Assembly (NCBI GenBank): GCA_045598225.1
Contig: JAZLLP010000006.1
Span: forward strand, 22,230 to 86,229
Source of the DNA: Acutalibacteraceae bacterium
GTDB taxonomy: Bacteria; Bacillota; Clostridia; Oscillospirales; Acutalibacteraceae
Length of the DNA: 64,000 nt
Direction: 5' to 3'
The notes under the pieces are model-generated. The model saw only the letters and a list, made by a program, of their open reading frames with translations. It searched no databases and was not told where the DNA came from. Shown here one piece after another: positions 481 through 40,153 of this stretch (its first letter is position 1; each line of letters begins with the position of its first letter). The position numbers were made by a program, and so were the translations under genes.

Positions 481-1884
481 GTGACAGAACACGCTTTAGT
501 TCATCATTCAGCCGACATTGCAATTTCCGCAATTCTCAAATATATCGACAAAGCACCTCAAAAAAATCTTCTGAAGATTTTAAATGTTGCCGAAAGACAT
601 TTTAAAATGTTTCCTCCCGACAATTTTACAAAAATGAAAAACATTGTAAAAGACGGCGACAACTGTTACATGACACTTGCTCTGAATATGCTTCGTGACG
701 TTGACAGAAACCTTATTAAATCAATGCTTCTGTCACTCGGTGTTCATGCGGGCTATTACGGCACAAAAGCAGTAAGAGCAAACCGTGAAAAGTTTAAATG
801 CAACATTCCGTGGGTAATTCTTTTTGACCCGACAAGCGCCTGCAACCTGCGTTGTAAAGGGTGCTGGGCGGCTGAATACGGGCACGAACTTCAACTTTCG
901 CTTGATGAAATGCGCTCGGTAGTAAAACAGGGCAAAGAACTCGGCACTCACTTTTATATGCTTACGGGCGGCGAACCGCTTATAAGAAAAAAAGACATTA
1001 TTACGCTTGCTTCGGAAAATCCCGAATGTACATTCCTTATTTACACAAACGCCACTCTTATTGACAAAAAACTTTGTGACGATATAAAAAAATGCGGTAA
1101 CATAACGCTTGCTTTAAGCATAGAAGGCAGTGAGGAAAGCAACGATTTCCGCCGTGGTGACGGCTCTTACAAAAGAACGCTTGAAGCAATGGAACTTTTA
1201 AAGCGTGAAAAAATACTTTACGGTCTTTCAATTTGCTACACAAGAAACAACATTGATTCTGTTACTTCCGACGAATTTCTTGACATGGTTGTTGACTTAG
1301 GCGCAAAATATGCGTTTTACTTCAACTATATGCCTGTCGGTCACGGCGCAGACAAAGAACTTATTCCCACCCCGTCACAGCGAAAATATATGTACTTCTT
1401 TATGAAGAAAACAAGAAATTCAAAAACGGGCAAACCGCTTTTCGTTATGGATTTTCAGGATGACGGCGAATACGTCGGCGGGTGTATTGCAGGCGGCAGA
1501 AACTATTTCCACATCAATTCAAACGGCGACATTGAGCCGTGCGTTTTCGTTCATTATTCCGATTCAAACATAAGAAAAGACACGCTTCTTGAAGCACTCA
1601 GAAAGCCTCTTTTTCAGGCATACAGAAAAGGTCAGCCGTTTAACGACAACCATCTTATGCCGTGTCCGATGCTTGAAAACCCCGAAAAACTCAGGGCGAT
1701 TATTAAGGAAACTGGCGCAAAAAGCACCGACCTCATAGTCAGCGAAGATGTTGATACACTCTGTTCAAGGTGCGACGATTTCAGCAAAGCGTGGAAACCC
1801 GTTGCAGAGGAAATATGGAACAGTACCTCGCATCCGAAAACTCATACGCAGTATTACAGAGACAGCGAAGCAACTAAAATATAA
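481..1884 (+). CDS. radical SAM protein
   Basis: 467-aa ORF with GTG start 7 nt after GGAGGG. CX3CX2C cluster (CNLRCKGC) followed by GGEPL; C-terminal Cys-rich region. Confidence 0.8.
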   Translation: MTEHALVHHSADIAISAILKYIDKAPQKNLLKILNVAERHFKMFPPDNFTKMKNIVKDGDNCYMTLALNMLRDVDRNLIKSMLLSLGVHAGYYGTKAVRANREKFKCNIPWVILFDPTSACNLRCKGCWAAEYGHELQLSLDEMRSVVKQGKELGTHFYMLTGGEPLIRKKDIITLASENPECTFLIYTNATLIDKKLCDDIKKCGNITLALSIEGSEESNDFRRGDGSYKRTLEAMELLKREKILYGLSICYTRNNIDSVTSDEFLDMVVDLGAKYAFYFNYMPVGHGADKELIPTPSQRKYMYFFMKKTRNSKTGKPLFVMDFQDDGEYVGGCIAGGRNYFHINSNGDIEPCVFVHYSDSNIRKDTLLEALRKPLFQAYRKGQPFNDNHLMPCPMLENPEKLRAIIKETGAKSTDLIVSEDVDTLCSRCDDFSKAWKPVAEEIWNSTSHPKTHTQYYRDSEATKI

Positions 1885-12840: not shown

Positions 12841-13431
12841 ATGGAACCTATCAATGAAACCCAGAAAAAAATATATGAATTTTTAGTAGAACGCTCACAG
12901 AACGGTGTGCCGCCGTCAGTTCGTGAAATAGGTGCGGCAGTCGGTCTTAAATCAACGTCTTCCGTTCAGAACAACCTTGACTCGCTTGAAAAAGCCGGCT
13001 ACATTATGCGTGACCCGCTTTTAAAACGTTCAATAAGAATTTTAGGTCAGGCTGAAAACGTTACGCACGTTCCGCTTCTCGGCACGGTTACTGCGGGTAT
13101 GCCCATTCTCGCCGTTGAGCAGATTGAGGGTTATATTCCGTATTCGGGCAAAGTTTCCCGTGAGAAATCACTTTTTGCTTTGCGTGTTCGCGGCGAAAGT
13201 ATGCTCTGGGCGGGTATTTTAAACGGCGACATTGTTATTGCCGAAAAAACACCGTACGCTCAAAACGGTGAAATTGTTGTCGCGATGATTGACAACGAAG
13301 CAACAGTTAAAAGGTTTTTTAAAGAAAACGGTCATTTCAGACTTCAACCCGAAAATGACGAATTTGAGCCTATTATTACAAACGAAGTTGCCATTTTGGG
13401 CAAAGTTGTTGCGCTGATGAGGTATTACTAA
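12841..13431 (+). CDS. lexA: LexA repressor
   Basis: Start moved to MEPINETQKKIYEFL (RBS AAGGGTGA). wHTH N-terminus and S24 peptidase motifs VRGESM ... TVKRF. Confidence 0.92.
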   Translation: MEPINETQKKIYEFLVERSQNGVPPSVREIGAAVGLKSTSSVQNNLDSLEKAGYIMRDPLLKRSIRILGQAENVTHVPLLGTVTAGMPILAVEQIEGYIPYSGKVSREKSLFALRVRGESMLWAGILNGDIVIAEKTPYAQNGEIVVAMIDNEATVKRFFKENGHFRLQPENDEFEPIITNEVAILGKVVALMRYY

Positions 13432-13580
13432 AGTTGCCAGTTGCCAGTTGTCAGTTGCCGGTTGTCAGTTGCTAGTCAGTTGTCAGTTGCCGGTTGCCGG
13501 TTGCCGGTTGCCGGTTGCCGGTTGTCAGTTGCTAGTCAGTTGTCAGTTGCCGGTTGCTAGTTGTTAGTTGATAAGTTGAG
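13432..13580 (+). repeat. tandem heptanucleotide array (RGTTGYY), about 20 units
   Basis: Starts the nucleotide after the lexA TAA: AGTTGCC AGTTGCC AGTTGTC AGTTGCC GGTTGTC AGTTGCT ... Two 4-nt AGTC irregularities and an internal ~60-nt higher-order duplication. Confidence 0.95.
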
Positions 13581-13600
13581 ATTATAAATATTAAGAAAAA

Positions 13601-13634
13601 AGCAGGTTTTCCGATTTTTTACGGAAGACCTGCT
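13601..13634 (+). terminator. intrinsic terminator hairpin after lexA and array
   Basis: AGCAGGTTTTCCG ... CGGAAGACCTGCT preceded by an A-run and followed by TTAATTATTATTT. Confidence 0.6.
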
Positions 13635-13660
13635 TTAATTATTATTTAGATTGCTGTTTA

Positions 13661-13689
13661 TTGACAAAATATGTCAGATATGATAATAT
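13661..13689 (+). promoter_or_regulatory. promoter of the small toxin gene
   Basis: TTGACA (13661-13666), 17-nt spacer, extended -10 TGaTAATAT (13681-13689). Confidence 0.65.
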
Positions 13690-13795: not shown

Positions 13796-13885
13796 ATGGT
13801 TACATACGAAGCATTGTTTTTATTACTTGCTTTATTGGTATCAGTAATTGCACTTGTCGTTGATATAATGACAAAAAAGAAATAA
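13796..13885 (+). CDS. type I toxin, 29-aa hydrophobic peptide (holin-like toxin type)
   Basis: Below the ORF-track cut-off. ATG 7 nt after GGGGGCGG gives MVTYEALFLLLALLVSVIALVVDIMTKKK, a single TM with a Lys tail. It has its own promoter, a structured 5' UTR hairpin GAGGGC/GCCCTC next to the SD, and a 3' end overlapping a convergent sRNA. Confidence 0.7.
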   Translation: MVTYEALFLLLALLVSVIALVVDIMTKKK

Positions 13886-13956
13886 ACCGCCCAAGCCAAA
13901 AAGTGCGGTTTATTTCTAACACTTATTTAGGCTAACCGTCTATCGGTTACCTTTCT
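13873..13956 (-). ncRNA. convergent antisense small RNA (putative type I antitoxin), copy 1
   Basis: Minus-strand TTGACA (13990-13985), 16-nt spacer, TGtTATAAT (-10 at 13968-13963). Conserved hairpin AACCG-ATAGA-CGGTT. Terminator AAACCGC/GCGGTTT plus U-run. The 3' part is complementary to the toxin mRNA 3' end. End coordinates are estimated. Confidence 0.65.
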
Positions 13957-14030
13957 GTTTTTATTATAACATATCTTCACTGTTTGTCAACCGACTTTAA
14001 TATAATATTTCAAATATCCTTAAGTCCGGC

Positions 14031-14051
14031 TGTCACCTGAAAACTGAAAAC
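14031..14051 (-). repeat. degenerate mini heptamer array after the rhamnosidase stop
   Basis: Minus-strand reading after TGA TGA is GTTTTCA GTTTTCA GGTGACA. Same GTTNNCA shape and position as the larger arrays, but only 2-3 units. Confidence 0.4.
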
Positions 14052-16552: not shown

Positions 16553-17884
16553 ATGGATATAACGGATTTTTTCAAAGAACAAAGCCGTGAAACAGCACGG
16601 CGTCTCGGTGCTGTTCTTTGCTTTAAAACGCTTACTCACGGCGCAAAAAAAGAAATTGACGGGGTTGTCGCCCGTTTTGATTTTGATACGTTCTTTTTTG
16701 ATATTATGTACGCACAAAAAGGAATTTTCGCAACGTTTCCCGATACTGTGTGGATTTCCTCAGCCTTTGAAGCGGAAGACGGCATACCGTTTTCGGTTTA
16801 CGATTTGCTCGCTTTTTTCTGTCCCGACGATTTTAATACATATACTTTCACTTCCGTTTCCGATGAAGCGCTGATGAAAAATGCTTTTGCAAAAACAGAG
16901 GAACTTTTTATTAAACTTCTGCCGTTTATGAAAAATGCCGCCGAAAACGGAGTTATAAGAAATAAAATGTTAACCGAGCAGAAAAACCGTATTTCCGAAT
17001 ATTGCGGAAACACTCTTATTTTTGACACAAGCGTTCCGTCAAGCGATTTAACCGAAAAACTCACGAATATGCTGATGGACAATTTTACCGTTACCGAAAC
17101 CGCAAGCGCAGTTACGATTTATTCGACTAAAAAATCAAAGGCAATTAAAAAACTCAAACGCAAAAAATATAAATCGCAGTATGAAAAAAATCTGCTTGAA
17201 TTTTTACTTTCGGAAAAAAGCGAAAACTATGACAGAGAATATGCGACCGACAACGTTAAAAACGCAATAAAAAAGCAATCCAAAAAAACTTTTACGGAAG
17301 TCGGTATCACGGTTTGTGCAGCCTTAATTATTCAGATTCCGCTATCCGCTATTGTATTCGGTATTTATTATGCGCTCTGTTTTTCATTTTTCCACGGTGC
17401 AACTTATACGGTGGGAACAGGCATTTCCAACGGAATTTTACCGGTTCTTTTTTCATTGTTATTAAGTTTTTGCACAGCACTTAAATACTCACCGGAAATT
17501 ATTGAAAAAATCAAAAAAACCAAAACACAGAAGCGTTCCGAAAAAGAGAAAAAAGCACTTAAATTTTTCATAATTATTGCTGAAACACTCACTTTGCTTA
17601 TGTGCGTTTACGCCGCAAACTACACAACCGCATTTTATGAAAATACTTTTACATATTCTGAAAACGGCCATTTTGTTTTGCGGCAGACGGAGTACAGTTA
17701 CACGCATATAAAATGTTATGTAAAAAGAAATGAATTTTTAAATCCGTATTATATTCTTGTTACAGATGACGGCTCCGAAATAGACCTTTACGATTCCACC
17801 TTTAACAATACCGAATATTTTGAAGAAAAAATAATACCGTTCCTTGAAGAGAAAGGCATAACACCATACAATAATTTCCGATAA
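16553..17884 (+). CDS. hypothetical multi-pass membrane protein
   Basis: About 443 aa from MDITDFFKEQ (RBS GGTGA). Soluble N-terminal half followed by several TM helices. No recognisable family. Confidence 0.6.
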   Translation: MDITDFFKEQSRETARRLGAVLCFKTLTHGAKKEIDGVVARFDFDTFFFDIMYAQKGIFATFPDTVWISSAFEAEDGIPFSVYDLLAFFCPDDFNTYTFTSVSDEALMKNAFAKTEELFIKLLPFMKNAAENGVIRNKMLTEQKNRISEYCGNTLIFDTSVPSSDLTEKLTNMLMDNFTVTETASAVTIYSTKKSKAIKKLKRKKYKSQYEKNLLEFLLSEKSENYDREYATDNVKNAIKKQSKKTFTEVGITVCAALIIQIPLSAIVFGIYYALCFSFFHGATYTVGTGISNGILPVLFSLLLSFCTALKYSPEIIEKIKKTKTQKRSEKEKKALKFFIIIAETLTLLMCVYAANYTTAFYENTFTYSENGHFVLRQTEYSYTHIKCYVKRNEFLNPYYILVTDDGSEIDLYDSTFNNTEYFEEKIIPFLEEKGITPYNNFR

Positions 17885-17974
17885 TGCGCAAGATAGTTTC
17901 TATAAAAAACACCGATAATGCGCAATATAGTTTGTGTAAAAAACACCCATAATACGCAATTTAATATAGTGTGT
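17879..17974 (+). repeat. 34-bp tandem direct repeat, about 2.8 copies
   Basis: CCGATAATGCGCAAGATAGTTTCTATAAAAAACA / CCGATAATGCGCAATATAGTTTGTGTAAAAAACA / CCCATAATACGCAATTTAATATAGTGTG. The first copy overlaps the stop codon of the upstream gene. Confidence 0.85.
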
Positions 17975-18004: not shown

Positions 18005-18085
18005 AAAAAAATAAACCGCCCTCGTCTAAAGGTGCGGTTTATTTCAAACTCATATTTAGGCTAACCGTCTATCGGTTGCCCTTCT
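18005..18085 (-). ncRNA. small RNA paralog, copy 2 (orphan; only about 25 nt of toxin 3' remnant upstream)
   Basis: Minus-strand TTGACA (18118-18113), TGcTATAAT (-10 at 18097-18092). Same AACCGATAGACGGTTAGCCTAAATA core as copy 1. Terminator AAACCGC/GCGGTTT plus U7. End coordinates are estimated. Confidence 0.6.
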
Positions 18086-18121
18086 TTTATTATTATAGCA
18101 TATCTTTGTCATTGTCAATCT

Positions 18122-18156
18122 GACAACCGGCAACCGACAACCGGCAACCGGCAACT
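18122..18156 (-). repeat. tandem heptanucleotide array, 5 units, abutting the glyA stop and the sRNA -35
   Basis: Minus-strand reading TG[A GTTGCC GGTTGCC GGTTGTC GGTTGCC GGTTGTC] AGATTGACA. The first unit overlaps the last base of the glyA TGA. Confidence 0.9.
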
Positions 18157-19406
18157 CAATAAAGCGGATATTTTTCACAAATCTTCGTAACTTCGTCACG
18201 GATGTAATCTGCGCTGTTGTCGAAATCAACCGCCGCAAGTTTTATGAGTTCGGCAATTTTAACCATTTCGTGTGCGCCGAATCCTCTTGTTGTGACTGCC
18301 GCCGTACCTACTCTTATTCCGCTTGTAACGAACGGTTTTTCCTGTTCGTTCGGAATGGAGTTTTTGTTTACGGTGATGTAAACTTCATCAAGTCTGTGTT
18401 CAAGTTCTTTGCCTGTAATACCGAGTGAACGCAGGTCAAGAAGAATAAGGTGGTTGTCCGAGCCGCCCGATACCATATCAACACCCTGTGCGGCAAAAGC
18501 ATTTTCAAACGCTTTGCAGTTTGAAATTATTTTTTTGCCGTATTCTTTAAATTCGGGTTTAAGCGCTTCACCGAAGCAGACCGCCTTTGCCGCAACAATG
18601 TGCATTAAAGGACCGCCCTGTATGCCGGGGAATATTGATTTGTCGATTTTTTTGGCAAGTTCCTCATTATTTGTAAGAATTATGCCGCCTCTCGGACCGC
18701 GCAAAGTTTTGTGAGTTGTTGAAGTAACAACGTCTGCATACGGGAACGGTGACGGATGAACTCCTGAAGCAACAAGTCCCGCTATATGCGCCATATCGAC
18801 CATCATAAGAGCACCGACTTTGTCGGCAACTTCTTTGATTCTCTTAAAATCAATTATTCTCGGATATGCCGAAGCACCTGCAACAATAAGTTTAGGTTTA
18901 CATTCAAGCGCCTTTTTTTCAAGAGCGTCATAATCAAGTAAACCGTTTGTGTCAACGCCGTAACTTTCAAAATTAAAATAACTGCCGCTTACGTTTACGG
19001 GTGAGCCGTGAGTAAGATGACCGCCGTCTGCAAGGCTCATACCGAGAACTGTGTCGCCGGGTTTGAGAAGTGCGAAATATACGGCAAAATTTGCCTGTGA
19101 GCCTGAATGAGGCTGAACGTTTGCGAAATTGCAATTGAAAAGTTTTTTAACTCTTTCACGTGCGATTTCTTCCGCAATATCAACACATTCGCAACCGCCG
19201 TAGTAACGGTGTGCGGGATAGCCTTCGGCATATTTATTTGTGAGTATGCTGCCCGAAGCCGCCATAACAGCGGGGGAAGCATAGTTTTCACTTGCTATGA
19301 GTTCAATGTTTCTGCTTTGCCTTGCAAACTCTTTTGAAACGCTTTCAAAGAGTTCGGGGTCGTAATTTTCAAGCAGAGAAAAATCAGTATTTATAAATTC
19401 GTTCAT
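18156..19406 (-). CDS. glyA: serine hydroxymethyltransferase
   Basis: 416 aa. Motifs [20 protein letters not shown]-Lys region [12 protein letters not shown] and SGGSDNHL. Confidence 0.95.
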
Positions 19407-36595: not shown

Positions 36596-37114
36596 CGCTG
36601 TCACCTTATAGGCTACCAACTTTCGGGCGAAAACGCAAACGAAAAAAATCTTATTACCGGCACAAGATATATGAACGTTGACGGTATGCTTCCTTTTGAA
36701 AATATGGTTGCCGATTATGTAAAAGAAACGGATAATCACGTTATGTACCGTGTAACACCCGTGTTTGACGGGTACAATCTTCTTGCTTCGGGCGTTCTTA
36801 TGGAAGCGTATTCGGTTGAAGATGACGGTGACGGCGTTCTTTTCTGCGTTTTTTGCTACAACGTTCAACCGGGTGTAAAAATAGATTATAAAACCGGTGA
36901 AAATGCAATTGACGGTAATTCATTAACCACCGCAAATGACAGTTCATCTTATAAAAACAGCTCATATATTCTTAACACAAAATCAAAAAAAATACATAAA
37001 CCGACTTGTTCTTCCGTAAATACAATAAATGAAGAAAACAAAGAAGAGTACAAAGGAAACATAGGCAATTTGCTCAATAAAGGTTACTCAAAATGCGGAA
37101 GTTGTTTTAAGTGA
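36596..37114 (+). pseudogene. 3' part of the disrupted EndA-like nuclease gene
   Basis: The frame is open from 36596: RCHLIGYQLSGENANEKNLITGTRYMNVDGMLPFENMVADYVKE... The track ORF begins only at the internal Met at 36671. C-terminal tail YILNTKSKKIHKPTCSSV...GYSKCGSC. Confidence 0.85.
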
Positions 37115-37118
37115 GGTC

Positions 37119-37174
37119 AGTTGCCGGTTGCTAGTTGCCGGTTGTTAGTTGCTAGTTGTTAGTTGCTGGTGGCA
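37119..37174 (+). repeat. tandem heptanucleotide array, 7-8 units
   Basis: Four nt after the nuclease TGA: AGTTGCC GGTTGCT AGTTGCC GGTTGTT AGTTGCT AGTTGTT AGTTGCT GGTGGCA. Confidence 0.9.
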
Positions 37175-37208: not shown

Positions 37209-37236
37209 AGGGGCTGTGATTTTTTCACAGTCCCCT
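37209..37236. terminator. bidirectional intrinsic terminator
   Basis: AGGGGCTGTGA-TTTTT-TCACAGTCCCCT, between the array and the convergent XRE gene. Confidence 0.75.
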
Positions 37237-37237
37237 G

Positions 37238-37480
37238 TTATTTTATTTCCTGCTCAAGATTTCTGAATGTATCTGTGTCAAAAAATTCAGTTATTGAAAT
37301 ATCCAATCCGTCGCATATTTTCTTAATGGTTGTGATGCTTGGATTTTTGCTTTGATTATAAATGATTGACTTAACTGTTGTATAAGGGATTCCGGAGATA
37401 GTCGCAAGTCTGCAAAAGTTAATGTTACGTTCATTACACAGTTCTTCTATACGCATTTTAGTTGCTTCAACTATTGTCAT
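37238..37480 (-). CDS. XRE-family HTH transcriptional regulator
   Basis: Start at MTIVEATKMRIEELC (RBS AGGAGTG). HTH_3 pattern LATISGIPYTTVKSIIYNQSKNPSITTIKKICDGLDISITEFF. Confidence 0.8.
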   Translation of the reverse strand: MTIVEATKMRIEELCNERNINFCRLATISGIPYTTVKSIIYNQSKNPSITTIKKICDGLDISITEFFDTDTFRNLEQEIK

Positions 37481-37548
37481 CCATATCACTCCTGACAAAA
37501 TTATGATACTGATTTTGCAGGAATGATATAGACTACAAATTATACGAA

Positions 37549-37716
37549 TTACGATATATAGTCTTTTTTGACTTTTGCTGCAATCAACGCAATAAACAAT
37601 TCAGGATCAATATTATATCCCGCCATCTCTAAAGCCTTGCGAATTTCTGTTTCAACTTCTTCAGAAGTAGTGTTATTCTCCTTTGCTATTTGATTTAATA
37701 TTTTTTGATAACTCAT
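37549..37716 (-). CDS. small hypothetical protein (Spo0A C-terminal-like, phage/ICE-type)
   Basis: 55 aa from MSYQKILNQIAKENNTTSEEVETEIRKALEMAG (RBS AAAGGAGG). Family resemblance is from memory only. Confidence 0.5.
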   Translation of the reverse strand: MSYQKILNQIAKENNTTSEEVETEIRKALEMAGYNIDPELFIALIAAKVKKDYIS

Positions 37717-37780: not shown

Positions 37781-37853
37781 ATTAAAAAAATAAATTTGTT
37801 GTGATAATCAGTATTGTAGGTTTTTCGTTGATCGTGAGCATAAAAAGAAATAA
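37781..37853 (+). pseudogene. decayed copy of the type I toxin gene
   Basis: Aligns with 13796-13885 (GGTGCgATTaaa against GGTGCaATGgtt; ...TCGTTGAT...AAAAAGAAATAA(A)CCGCCC). The start codon is ATT and the frame is broken by TGA/TAG. An alternative GTG ORF at 37801-37908 (MIISIVGFSLIVSIKRNNRP...) keeps a hydrophobic segment. Confidence 0.4.
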
Positions 37854-37929
37854 CCGCCCCTCCGTCCAAAGAGTGCGGTTAAATCTTATCACATTTCTAA
37901 TGGCGTAACCGTCTATCGGTTGCCTTTTT
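37842..37929 (-). ncRNA. small RNA paralog, copy 3
   Basis: Minus-strand CTGACA -35, 16-nt spacer, TGcTATGAT -10 (37941-37936). Core GGCAACCGATAGACGGTTACGCC. Terminator AACCGC/GCGGTT plus U-run. More diverged than copies 1 and 2. Confidence 0.5.
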
Positions 37930-37966
37930 GTTATTATCATAGCATATCTTTTTCGTTTGTCAGTCT

Positions 37967-38127
37967 GCCAACCTGCAACTAACAACTAACAACTGGCAAC
38001 TGGCAACTAGCAACTAACAACTAACAACTAACAACTAGCAACCGGCAACTAACAACTGGCAACCGGCAACTAACAACTGGCAACTAACAACCGGCAACTG
38101 ACAACTGCCAACCGGCAACTGGCAACT
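37967..38127 (-). repeat. tandem heptanucleotide array, 23 units in perfect 7-nt register
   Basis: Minus-strand reading after the lysK TGA-TTTT: AGTTGCC AGTTGCC GGTTGGC AGTTGTC ... AGTTGCA GGTTGGC. 161 nt is exactly 23 x 7 with no indel, and it runs into the sRNA -35. Confidence 0.95.
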
Positions 38128-38131
38128 AAAA

Positions 38132-40153
38132 TCACTTAATCATAGTTCCCGTCGGTACGCAATCAGCGACAAATACTACCTGACAGCCGCAAGCGCCGTT
38201 TGTTGCGGCAAGAAGCATTCCGTTGCTTTCAACACCCGAAAATCTTGCAGGTTCAAGGTTTGCAATAACAATAATCTTTTTACCGACAAGTTGTTCGCAG
38301 GTGTATTCGCTTTTGATTGATGAAACAATTACACGGTTTTCGCCGCTTCCGTCATCGAGAGTAAGTTTAAGACAACTGTGCGATTTTCTTATTTCCTGCG
38401 CTTTTACTATTTCGCATACACGAAGGTCAAGTTTTGCAAAATCGTCAATCGAAACTTTTTCTTCTTTGAAAGGCGTGAAAGCGTCTGCTTCGCCGTAAAC
38501 GTGTTTGTCCTCATTTTCCTGCTTTTCTTCCTCAACGGGTGCTTTCGCTTCCTCTTCTGTTTTGTCGTAAGAGAAATCAAGAAGACCGACATATTTCTGC
38601 GGGTCAATAGCATAAAGGAAGAGGTAAAGACGTGGACCTTTTTCTTTGTCAATAAGAAGTTTGTAAATGTTTTTGAAGAATGTTCCCTGAAGTGCTTTAA
38701 GCGCTTTTTCGTCAAGTTCTTCGCCGCTTACTTCTTTCGGAATTGCGTAAAGTTTTTTGTTGAGTTCGTCAAGAGTGTAGCCGCCTTTTGAAATGTATTC
38801 AAAAAGTGCTTTTACTTCTGCTTTCTGCGGCTCTGTGAGTGTTTCGTAAACATCCCAGTTACGAAGAGTACGAAGTCTGTTTACCTGGTCGGGAGCGCAG
38901 TTTTCAAGCCAGTATTTCGCTCTTTCAAGTCTGTCGGAGAACTGTTCATATTTATACGGTGTACCTATTTTTTCAAAAACGGTTTCAAGCATAGGTATGT
39001 TGAAGTCAACAACCGAACCCATCTGAACAAGAAGGCTCATGGGAACGGTGTCAAGTTCTCTGTCGCCTACCGTTGTGTTATACATTATTTCAAGTTGTGC
39101 GTTTGACGCCGTACCGTCTTTTATTGCGTTATACATTTTGTCAAACTCAAAATACTGACGGAGAATACCGTCATCAAAACAGAAATCAAACGCCTTTAAC
39201 GGCTCTGTTTTTGAATAAAGCCACAAAATAACTTCGGGCTCATATATTTTAAGAAGCGTTTCGGGAGTAAGGTTAAGTCCCGATGAACCGGACATTTTGC
39301 CCGTTGTGCCTTTTATGCCTATAAATTCATATCCCTGGAATATCGGCGGCTCATAGTTGAATATTTTTCTTGCAATATCTTTACTTGTGTCATAACTGCC
39401 GTGAGGTGAAGCGTGGTCTTTTCCGCCCGGCTCAAAGTCAACGCCCTCATACATCCAGCGCATGGGCCAGTCAATTTTCCACGCAAGTTTGCAGTTGAAA
39501 TCTTTTGTAAAATCAAAAGTTCCTTTATGACCGCATGCACATTCGTATTCGGCAACTGTGCAGTCATCGGAAAGTGATGTGATTTTTGTAGTATCTCTGC
39601 CGCATTCGGGACAGTAAATGCTTACGGGGTAATAATTCTCTCTTTCGCCGTCCTGCGCTTTCTGTGTGCGGTGGCTGTCGAGAATATCAAATATTTCGCC
39701 CCTCTTTTTAAGAGCAAGAAGAATGTATTCCGTATATTTGCCACTTCTGTACATATCTGCCTGATAGCGGTAATCCATATCAATACCGAATTTTACAATG
39801 GAGTCCATAAACTCTTTTTCAAAATATTCGGCATAGGTTTTTGCGTCTGACTCCTTAAAAGGATTCCTTACATCAACGTACGGACAGCCGATATATTTTT
39901 CCATATCATCATCAACTGCGGCAACGTTTACGGGAACTTTTCTCATTCTGTCGAACTCGTCCCACGAGAAAAGAAGTTTTGCTTTTTTACCTTTTTTTCT
40001 GAGTGCGCGTACAACAAAGTAACTTGTCGCTATATCACGGAAATTGCCTATGTGTATTGAGCCTGACGGACTAATACCGGCAGCACAGACGTATTCTTCC
40101 TTATCGGGATTTCTTCTGATTATTCTTTCCGCTATTTCTTCTGACCAATGCAT
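38132..40153 (-). CDS. lysK: class I lysine--tRNA ligase fused to a C-terminal tRNA-binding (Trbp111/EMAP-like) domain
   Basis: 673 aa. SPSGSIHIGNFRD (HIGH-type) and GKMSGSSG (KMSKS-type) class I LysRS motifs. The last ~110 aa (DLRVCEIVKAQEI...GVESNGMLLAA) resemble an OB-fold tRNA-binding domain. Confidence 0.8.
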   Translation of the reverse strand: MHWSEEIAERIIRRNPDKEEYVCAAGISPSGSIHIGNFRDIATSYFVVRALRKKGKKAKLLFSWDEFDRMRKVPVNVAAVDDDMEKYIGCPYVDVRNPFKESDAKTYAEYFEKEFMDSIVKFGIDMDYRYQADMYRSGKYTEYILLALKKRGEIFDILDSHRTQKAQDGERENYYPVSIYCPECGRDTTKITSLSDDCTVAEYECACGHKGTFDFTKDFNCKLAWKIDWPMRWMYEGVDFEPGGKDHASPHGSYDTSKDIARKIFNYEPPIFQGYEFIGIKGTTGKMSGSSGLNLTPETLLKIYEPEVILWLYSKTEPLKAFDFCFDDGILRQYFEFDKMYNAIKDGTASNAQLEIMYNTTVGDRELDTVPMSLLVQMGSVVDFNIPMLETVFEKIGTPYKYEQFSDRLERAKYWLENCAPDQVNRLRTLRNWDVYETLTEPQKAEVKALFEYISKGGYTLDELNKKLYAIPKEVSGEELDEKALKALQGTFFKNIYKLLIDKEKGPRLYLFLYAIDPQKYVGLLDFSYDKTEEEAKAPVEEEKQENEDKHVYGEADAFTPFKEEKVSIDDFAKLDLRVCEIVKAQEIRKSHSCLKLTLDDGSGENRVIVSSIKSEYTCEQLVGKKIIVIANLEPARFSGVESNGMLLAATNGACGCQVVFVADCVPTGTMIK

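Follow-up and report, generated by a model that had tools for sequence, protein, structure and literature searches.

Heptanucleotides are the most abundant long simple sequence repeats (SSRs) in many prokaryotes according to Mrazek (2007), as this work is cited in two later studies (PMC4692102, PMC4679880), and polymerase slippage was proposed for them. Here, we analyzed a 64,000-nucleotide stretch from an Acutalibacteraceae bacterium (Bacillota; Clostridia; Oscillospirales; assembly GCA_045598225.1, contig JAZLLP010000006.1, positions 22,230 to 86,229 of the forward strand), referred to below as the window, in which tandem arrays of the heptanucleotide GTTGYYR directly follow the stop codons of four genes, among them lexA. 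Similar arrays were searched for in reference genomes of other phyla, and those of the window were compared with the corresponding loci of sister strains and related species.

Two described families of heptanucleotide repeats come closest to these arrays. TAACTGA direct repeats occur in Beggiatoaceae, Cyanobacteria and Bacteroidetes, in up to 43 copies and with 7-nt steps between strains (MacGregor 2015, Front Microbiol, PMC4679880). Most precede a start codon at close range, in forward orientation, and one reverse-oriented set was found immediately past a stop codon (PMC4679880). GGGNATC repeats, which form quadruplexes, were described in Xanthomonas and Nostoc (Rehm et al. 2015, PLoS One, PMC4692102). 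Their G-rich strand is either sense, within 50 bp past a stop codon or overlapping it, or antisense, at most 50 bp upstream of a start codon; these repeats lie nearer to their 5' neighbor open reading frame (ORF), whichever its orientation (PMC4692102). They are mostly transcribed, show wide length variation among close relatives, occur in inverted pairs and mark regions of increased genome stability (PMC4692102). No function was found for either family (PMC4679880, PMC4692102).

GTTGYYR arrays follow stop codons in the window

All four arrays of the window begin 0-4 nt past a stop codon and run in the sense orientation of the gene that ends there (4/4). The lexA array (13432-13580, plus strand) contains 20 GTTG anchors and stands immediately behind the TAA at 13429-13431, while the nuclease array (37119-37174, plus strand), with 7 units and a degenerate GGTGGCA, is separated from the TGA at 37112-37114 by GGTC. 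On the minus strand, the glyA array (18121-18155) comprises 5 units, the first GTTG beginning at the very next base behind the TGA at 18156-18158, and the lysK array (37967-38127) has 23 units in perfect 7-nt register, preceded by TTTT and the TGA at 38132-38134. A weak fifth mini-array, reading GTTTTCA GTTTTCA GGTGACA (14031-14051, minus strand), is found past the TGA of a rhamnosidase gene and a second TGA. An initial annotation of this DNA, made from the letters alone, had reported these four arrays together with the weak fifth case, and all of them were recovered where it had placed them.

The two-unit pattern GTTGYYRGTTGYYR has 43 matches in the 64-kb window (0.03 expected); a looser three-unit pattern with one mismatch likewise gives 43 matches (0.30 expected) and identifies no window array beyond the four. 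Tandem Repeats Finder assigned them a period of 7, with 19.7, 7.0, 4.6 and 21.9 copies, and the distance from anchor to anchor is 7 nt in nearly all of the ~135 units. The lexA array carries a 4-nt insertion, GTCA, behind two of its 20 GTTG anchors, and its tandem-repeat analysis also revealed an internal higher-order duplication of 60 nt. Overall, the family is present at 4-5 loci in the 64-kb window and at 4 loci within 13 kb of a sister strain.

Behind the lexA array, at a distance of 19 nt, there is a terminator-like hairpin, T1 (13599-13636, plus strand), with an A-run, a 15-bp stem and a T-run, and a second such hairpin (37210-37234, plus strand) lies 35 nt past the nuclease array. Promoter-like sites adjoin the glyA array (at 18118) and the lysK array (at 37963), both of which lead straight into the -35 box of a small RNA (sRNA) promoter. 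Each array is thus located between the stop codon and the next terminator or promoter, as had been proposed. Since they stand upstream of terminators, the arrays would sit at the start of the 3' untranslated region (UTR), which agrees with the initial annotation. The end of the nuclease array (37162-37169) reads GCTGGTGG, the Chi octamer of E. coli, which in a Clostridia genome is probably a coincidence.

The identities of LexA, serine hydroxymethyltransferase (SHMT, glyA) and the rhamnosidase were confirmed by Pfam, and the lysK product is a class I lysyl-tRNA synthetase (LysRS) with a tRNA-binding domain (Pfam). The best matches of this LysRS share 92% identity with it and carry the name "MAG: Oscillospiraceae bacterium", which fits an uncultured member of the Oscillospiraceae. 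The gene names given initially hold for these four, but not entirely for the "nuclease" ORF (36671-37114, plus strand, 147 aa), which corresponds only to the C-terminal part of an Endonuclease_NS_2 protein and matches only the last third of that domain. In the sister strain L399, a 315-aa Endonuclease_NS_2 gene (519-1466, minus strand) is found in another neighborhood, beside nadABC and glyA. The window copy is probably truncated or rearranged. Exact-protein look-ups of GlyA, LysRS, the DUF4153-like protein, the nuclease ORF and P0121 gave no match.

Relation to described heptanucleotide repeats

The arrays consist of head-to-tail 7-nt units in non-coding, intergenic DNA, and their copy number differs between close relatives. 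They belong to the bacterial heptanucleotide class that includes the cyanobacterial short tandemly repeated repetitive (STRR) sequences, the long SSRs of Mrazek, TAACTGA and GGGNATC. The initial annotation had not recognized the repeat family; it is a member of this known class, and its placement rule has already been published (PMC4692102, PMC4679880). All window arrays follow the rule as formulated by Rehm et al. (2015), with the G-rich strand in sense within 50 bp past a stop codon and the array nearer to the 5' ORF. The stop-codon pattern is therefore real and already described. The novelty lies in the clade, in the unit variant and in a placement that follows the rule without G-tracts.

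With the GGGNATC repeats, the GTTGYYR arrays have the placement rule, the length variation and the inverted pairs in common. They differ in that GGGNATC repeats contain G-tracts, form G-quadruplexes and prefer four units, whereas GTTGYYR has no G-tract, and in that the former mark stability regions while the distal flanks are swapped at the latter (see below). No unit contains GGG, and the four or more tracts of at least three G that define a G-quadruplex are absent, which excludes a quadruplex as an explanation for these arrays. A placement rule that is followed even by units lacking G-tracts cannot have quadruplexes as its cause.

The likeness to TAACTGA lies in the period of 7, the intergenic location and the 7-nt copy-number steps, and probably also in the presence of one dominant unit at many loci. 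Moreover, the tandem reverse complement of TAACTGA, GTTATCA, is one base away from GTTGTCA, and GTTATCA units are seen at the edges of GTTGTCA arrays in three of the stretches retrieved (L038, L059 and L108). The window arrays differ, however, in lying past stop codons in the opposite orientation and in a clostridial host, and GTTGYYR has a G at position 4 and transition-variable positions 5-7. The TAACTGA unit itself is thus missed by one base, and the forward location upstream of start codons is not seen in the window.

STRR and long SSRs are, like GTTGYYR, tandem heptanucleotides in non-coding DNA, and their units, such as CCCCAGT, TTGGTCA and CAACAGT, differ from it. In the accounts of them given by the later studies, they are described mainly in heterocystous cyanobacteria, Burkholderia and Xanthomonas. 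The contingency SSRs of Haemophilus, Neisseria and Moraxella are likewise slippage-prone and strain-variable in unit number, but are located inside ORFs, between promoter elements or in the 5' UTR, where they switch expression, whereas GTTGYYR arrays stand past the stops of housekeeping genes. Located past stops and upstream of -35 boxes or terminators, the arrays do not have the layout of phase-variation loci. CRISPR arrays and iterons were rejected as well, given the 7-nt units and the absence of spacers.

Placement across phyla

Five consecutive units, (GTTGYYR)5, are present in at least 120 stretches of reference genomes, and the matches listed include Cyanobacteria, Planctomycetota, Acidobacteriota, Bacteroidota, Lysobacterales, Streptomyces, Chloroflexota, Saccharibacteria and others. 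The placement counts below were all made among the matches listed; for the stop-codon test, sense ORFs of at least 100 codons were considered, with the stop within 10 nt of the array end. For 32 of 92 arrays, a sense stop codon is no more than 10 nt away from the GTTG-sense 5' end, whereas the 3' end comes this close to the stop of a convergent ORF in 1 of 80 (Fisher p = 2e-9 for the two ends). Between convergent genes, the shorter distance is that of the 5' end in 14 of 18 cases, and the stop-codon rule is also found in co-directional gene pairs. A second class of arrays has its 5' end beside the start of an opposite-strand ORF (17/106, versus 3/92 for the 3' end); this start-adjacent figure is weaker because start calls are biased. 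Inverted pairs are inward-facing in 15 cases and outward-facing in none, and the two pairs of the window also face inward. The rule proposed for the window, of stop codons followed by arrays in sense orientation, holds therefore both there and across phyla.

This does not imply that GTTGYYR is uniquely enriched, a possibility that was discarded: in viral contigs, control heptamers are equally or almost equally common, with 23 and at least 119 stretches, versus 54 for GTTGYYR. Other units are just as frequent in the same genomes, and about 80 other heptamer arrays are present in the flanks of the listed genome loci. The replication strand was also rejected as the cause of the orientation, as both orientations are present 800 bp apart.

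Strain and species comparisons

Contigs of the same species, sharing 96-98% nucleotide identity in lexA, glyA and the rhamnosidase gene, differ in the unit number of their arrays. Past lexA, there are 20 units in the window, 10 in strain L001 and ~31 in strain L002, where the array is preceded by a TGA stop and followed by a different downstream gene. Past the rhamnosidase gene, the 3 degenerate units of the window compare with 41 GTTGYCR units in L001 and L399, and past glyA the 5 units compare with 2.5 in the sister strain L399. The length variability suspected from the window alone is hence observed between strains.

Beyond the species, the arrays are not conserved. Rumen and gut metagenomes supplied 70 LexA orthologues (51-95% identity), none of which has a heptamer array up to 600 nt from its stop codon, and LysRS relatives at 87-92% identity have no array either. 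About 400 kb of related loci contained a single array, with four units of GTTTTCR. A relative with a 92% identical LysRS (L124, 5172-5201) has no GTTGYYR array, but carries (GTTTTCR)x4 past a hairpin; this variant unit is also that of the weak fifth array of the window. Since arrays are absent from the orthologues of related species, their distribution points to a species-level burst and not to a conserved feature of these genes.

The comparison of the flanks shows a further regularity: in three strain comparisons, the array is kept at the stop codon and the distal DNA is different. The lexA array is followed in the window by T1, a predicted toxin gene and an sRNA module (see below), versus a different terminator and a different neighbor gene in L002. 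The distal flank of the glyA array consists of an sRNA module and 34-bp repeats in the window, compared with a terminator homologous to T1 in L399. In the case of the nuclease, a terminator, a helix-turn-helix (HTH) gene, a small ORF and an sRNA in the window are replaced in L399 by CCGGACTTAAGG, another terminator and a different neighbor gene. The 12-mer CCGGACTTAAGG has only two occurrences in all related DNA, one in the window (14018-14029, minus strand), where it follows the mini-array of the rhamnosidase gene, and one in L399 and L400 (445-456, minus strand). Each copy adjoins the 3' end of a heptamer array, and the two loci are different. The T1 hairpin, GCAGGTTTTCCG...CGGAARACCTGC with an A-rich leader, likewise recurs past the glyA mini-array of L399 (7293-7327), and the T1 copies represent a dispersed "array plus terminator" module. 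Based on the swapped distal flanks, the 12-mer and the position of the sRNA modules, each of which has a heptamer array immediately before it (four copies, three in the window and one in L001), the arrays appear to behave as junctions where intergenic modules are exchanged.

Unit composition and reading frames

The GTTG core is altered in only two or three of the ~135 units. At unit position 5, C and T are balanced (59 and 62), position 6 has C in 83 and T in 40 cases, and position 7 has A in 71 and G in 54. Transversions account for only 6 of 375 letters at positions 5-7, the rest of the changes being transitions, and units ending in YTG are nearly absent (1/125). Read on the other strand, the unit is YRRCAAC (CGGCAAC, TGACAAC, TAACAAC), and never TAACTGA in the window. 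All arrays of the species, in the window and the sister strains (7/7), open with GTTGCCR, and their units depart from GTTGCCG with the distance from the stop codon (permutation p = 0.001). An addition of units at the stop-proximal end was nevertheless rejected, as this gradient was not reproduced in 80 arrays of other phyla (p = 0.23), where degenerate units are found at both array ends, as in microsatellites.

The arrays had been regarded as non-coding on the grounds that unit variants create TAG in frame. This argument stands in part: many units do create TAG, but it arises only from units ending in TA, and arrays composed of GCCR and GTCR units leave every frame open. A coding repeat was rejected on broader grounds, namely that the arrays come after the stop codons of complete conserved proteins, that many units create TAG and that orthologues without an array end at the same residue. 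The 41-unit array past the rhamnosidase gene (L001 3643-4149, minus strand, equivalent to L399 11173-11679) contains no TA units and has been called as a 168-aa gene, with no Pfam match, which shows that heptamer arrays can yield spurious hypothetical proteins.

sRNA modules and other genes next to the arrays

The sRNA family found next to the arrays is ~85 nt long and has a strong promoter, an invariant 5' hairpin GGUAACCG-AUAGA-CGGUUAGCC (GGYAACCG-AUAGA-CGGUUA) and an intrinsic terminator, with fold z-scores of -4.6 to -6.1. Copy 1 (13875-13990, minus strand) has a perfect TTGACA-16-TGnTATAAT promoter, the hairpin and the terminator, and is convergent with a 29-aa toxin-like ORF. Copy 2 (18005-18118, minus strand) is located directly 3' of the glyA array and copy 3 (37845-37963, minus strand) directly 3' of the lysK array, while the sister strain copy (L001 3735-3870, minus strand) also stands 3' of an array. 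The family has no Rfam match, and Rfam at the gathering score together with ARAGORN identified no RNA family or tRNA in the window.

The 29-aa hydrophobic ORF, MVTYEALFLLLALLVSVIALVVDIMTKKK (13796-13885, plus strand), has a promoter at 13661-13689 and overlaps at its 3' end with the convergent sRNA copy 1. It has a weak match to Hol_Tox (PF16935, E = 0.0014), and its mRNA matches BsrG below the threshold (RF01412, E = 0.0012). From these similarities and their arrangement, the ORF and sRNA copy 1 look like a type I toxin-antitoxin of the bsrG/SR4 type. The toxin ORF is missing in the sister strain L001.

The insert between the inverted nuclease and lysK arrays contains a Cro/C1-type HTH gene (37238-37498, minus strand, 86 aa) and a 55-aa ORF (37549-37716, minus strand) that is weakly similar to the C-terminal domain of Spo0A. 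Beside sRNA copy 2, a 34-bp tandem repeat, CCGATAATGCGCAAGATAGTTTCTATAAAAAACA, with 2.4 copies (17878-17959), starts at the stop codon of a 449-aa gene; this repeat is missing from the sister strain L399, where the 449-aa gene ends one codon earlier.

Possible explanations for the arrays

We see an even chance that the arrays are repeats driven by slippage and recombination, which are tolerated at the start of the 3' UTR with the G/T-rich strand in sense and mediate the exchange of intergenic modules. Unit number would shift fast by slipped-strand mispairing and by unequal or ectopic recombination, and the arrays would persist where they are harmless, that is, directly past a stop codon, with the G/T-rich strand in sense and ahead of a terminator. 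Transcription would place them there at the very beginning of the 3' UTR. As the same repeat is present at several gene ends, the dispersed arrays could serve as homology patches, through which T1, the sRNA module or the putative type I toxin-antitoxin would be exchanged without detaching the array from the gene end. A dedicated, sequence-specific function would not be required.

Some of the observations do weigh against this explanation. Neutral decay is no obvious source for the near-invariant GTTG, the restriction of positions 5-7 to transitions and the scarcity of YTG units. Also, a single unit family appears to occupy many loci per genome, which calls for a copying process or for some factor acting in trans, since independent slippage would give differing units. 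A tolerance filter gives no explanation for arrays that are flush with the ORF boundary (0-5 nt) and keep a spacer of 19-35 nt before the terminator. Finally, the lexA array is retained in two different downstream contexts. The flush 5' end at the ORF boundary and the apparent dominance of a single unit family per genome are left unexplained by every model considered here, including those that follow.

An element acting at the RNA level is rather unlikely in our view. As the start of the 3' UTR, (GUUGYYR)n could bind a protein with a footprint of ~7 nt, of the cold-shock-domain or S1 type, pair with a GGCAAC RNA such as the GGCAACCG arm of the sRNA, or fold protectively by G-U pairs. The strict sense orientation past stop codons and upstream of terminators is consistent with such a role, and cold-shock domains bind ~7 nt. 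With GTTG invariant and only transitions at the remaining positions, every unit variant could still pair with UGGCAAC through G-U wobble, and there are 10 copies of CGGTTGCC, which is complementary to the sRNA arm, versus 1.1 expected, with seven of the 10 in arrays. For the TAACTGA repeats, Csp, S1 and CsrA have been put forward as binders (PMC4679880). The predicted duplexes between sRNA and arrays are, however, no better than those of dinucleotide shuffles (z of -2.6 to +1.6), on which basis an sRNA sponge was rejected. Folding gives a similarly divided picture: CCG-rich arrays fold strongly as sense RNA and not as antisense RNA, the lexA array with -50 kcal/mol (z = -4.5) in sense and z = -0.4 in antisense, but the lysK array (z = -1.2) is unstructured in both orientations, and so are GTTGTTA and GTTGTTG, the most frequent units in other genomes, so that G-U structure was discarded as a general cause of the orientation. 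The orthologous genes of sister species do without arrays, and 3 to 41 units are found at one and the same site. Moreover, the polarity of the repeat on the DNA remains unchanged across phyla where the array adjoins an ORF of the opposite strand (PMC4692102), for which one RNA role is insufficient.

The possibility that the arrays are the ends of a mobile cassette had been raised in the initial annotation, and the inward-facing pairs and the exchange of the distal flank in three comparisons do fit it. The arrays would then serve as inverted terminal repeats of variable length, or as attachment sites, for a foldback-like, non-autonomous cassette that moves or is exchanged from one gene end to another, with the recombinase or transposase encoded elsewhere. 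In the window, two inward-facing pairs enclose inserts of 450 and 790 nt, and the 15 inward versus 0 outward pairs among the matches listed in other phyla follow the same pattern; insert content varies between strains while the arrays remain, the same distal modules recur at different loci, and the species-level burst of a single unit family points the same way. On the other hand, there are arrays without a partner, as in the case of lexA in L002, of glyA and of many co-directional cases in other phyla, and the search for a target-site duplication, a fixed terminus or a recombinase close by gave none. Two independent arrays on convergent genes would also face inward. We thus consider this cassette quite improbable. 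A more specific version, in which the repeat is recognized in a single DNA polarity by an enzyme of recombination or resection, appears slightly more plausible, though still improbable. The array would then be fixed to the ORF end, and the content between two inward-facing arrays, such as terminators, sRNA and type I toxin modules or small regulator genes, would be replaced as a unit. If true, it would explain the DNA-level polarity, the 15:0 inward pairs and the single unit family per genome for all bacterial heptamer repeats.

A related idea is that of a guard or hotspot at the DNA level, whose polarity would be read by AddAB or RecBCD as in the case of Chi; after a break in the variable intergenic DNA, resection would stop at the array and repair would begin at this point, leaving the ORF protected and the cassette replaced. 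Known Chi sites are G/T-rich, as is the GTTGYYR unit, and strains differ on the 3' side of the arrays, where sequence is replaced, but agree on the conserved 5' side. Polarity also appears to be set on the DNA, given that the 5' end of the G-rich strand adjoins an ORF at either its stop or its start (PMC4692102). We nevertheless regard this idea as very improbable, considering that the unit sequence differs between genomes and that many heptamer families coexist in cyanobacteria. In the 64-kb window, single GTTGYYR motifs outside the arrays are neither enriched nor strand-skewed (51 on the plus and 46 on the minus strand, versus 44 and 42 expected), contrary to what a Chi-type hotspot would show.

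The slimmest chance is that of a promoter-related element, in which the resemblance of the unit (G + TTGYYA) to the -35 box TTGACA would let arrays feed, tune or spawn sRNA promoters: the arrays do run in register into the -35 box in all four sRNA copies (GTTGACA, GATTGACA, GACTGACA) and their units match TTGACA at 4-5 of 6 positions, but a terminator, not a promoter, comes behind the lexA array and behind the nuclease array, the rhamnosidase sRNA copy of the window has a perfect promoter with almost no array, and the promoter tuning initially suggested is unlikely because the arrays lie upstream of the -35 box, so that the -35/-10 spacing is unaffected by unit number.

Implications

To our knowledge, no function or origin of heptanucleotide repeats has been established in more than 30 years. 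The arrays described here extend this class to Clostridia of the gut or rumen, and they show the placement rule for a unit that is unable to form a G-quadruplex. At the practical level, arrays without TA units get annotated as hypothetical proteins, and arrays break short-read assemblies. The same-species comparisons, in which the array is fixed and the rest of the intergenic region is exchanged, constitute natural test material for three questions: whether the arrays are recombination junctions, whether it is the DNA or the RNA from which their orientation is read, and whether they grow from one end.

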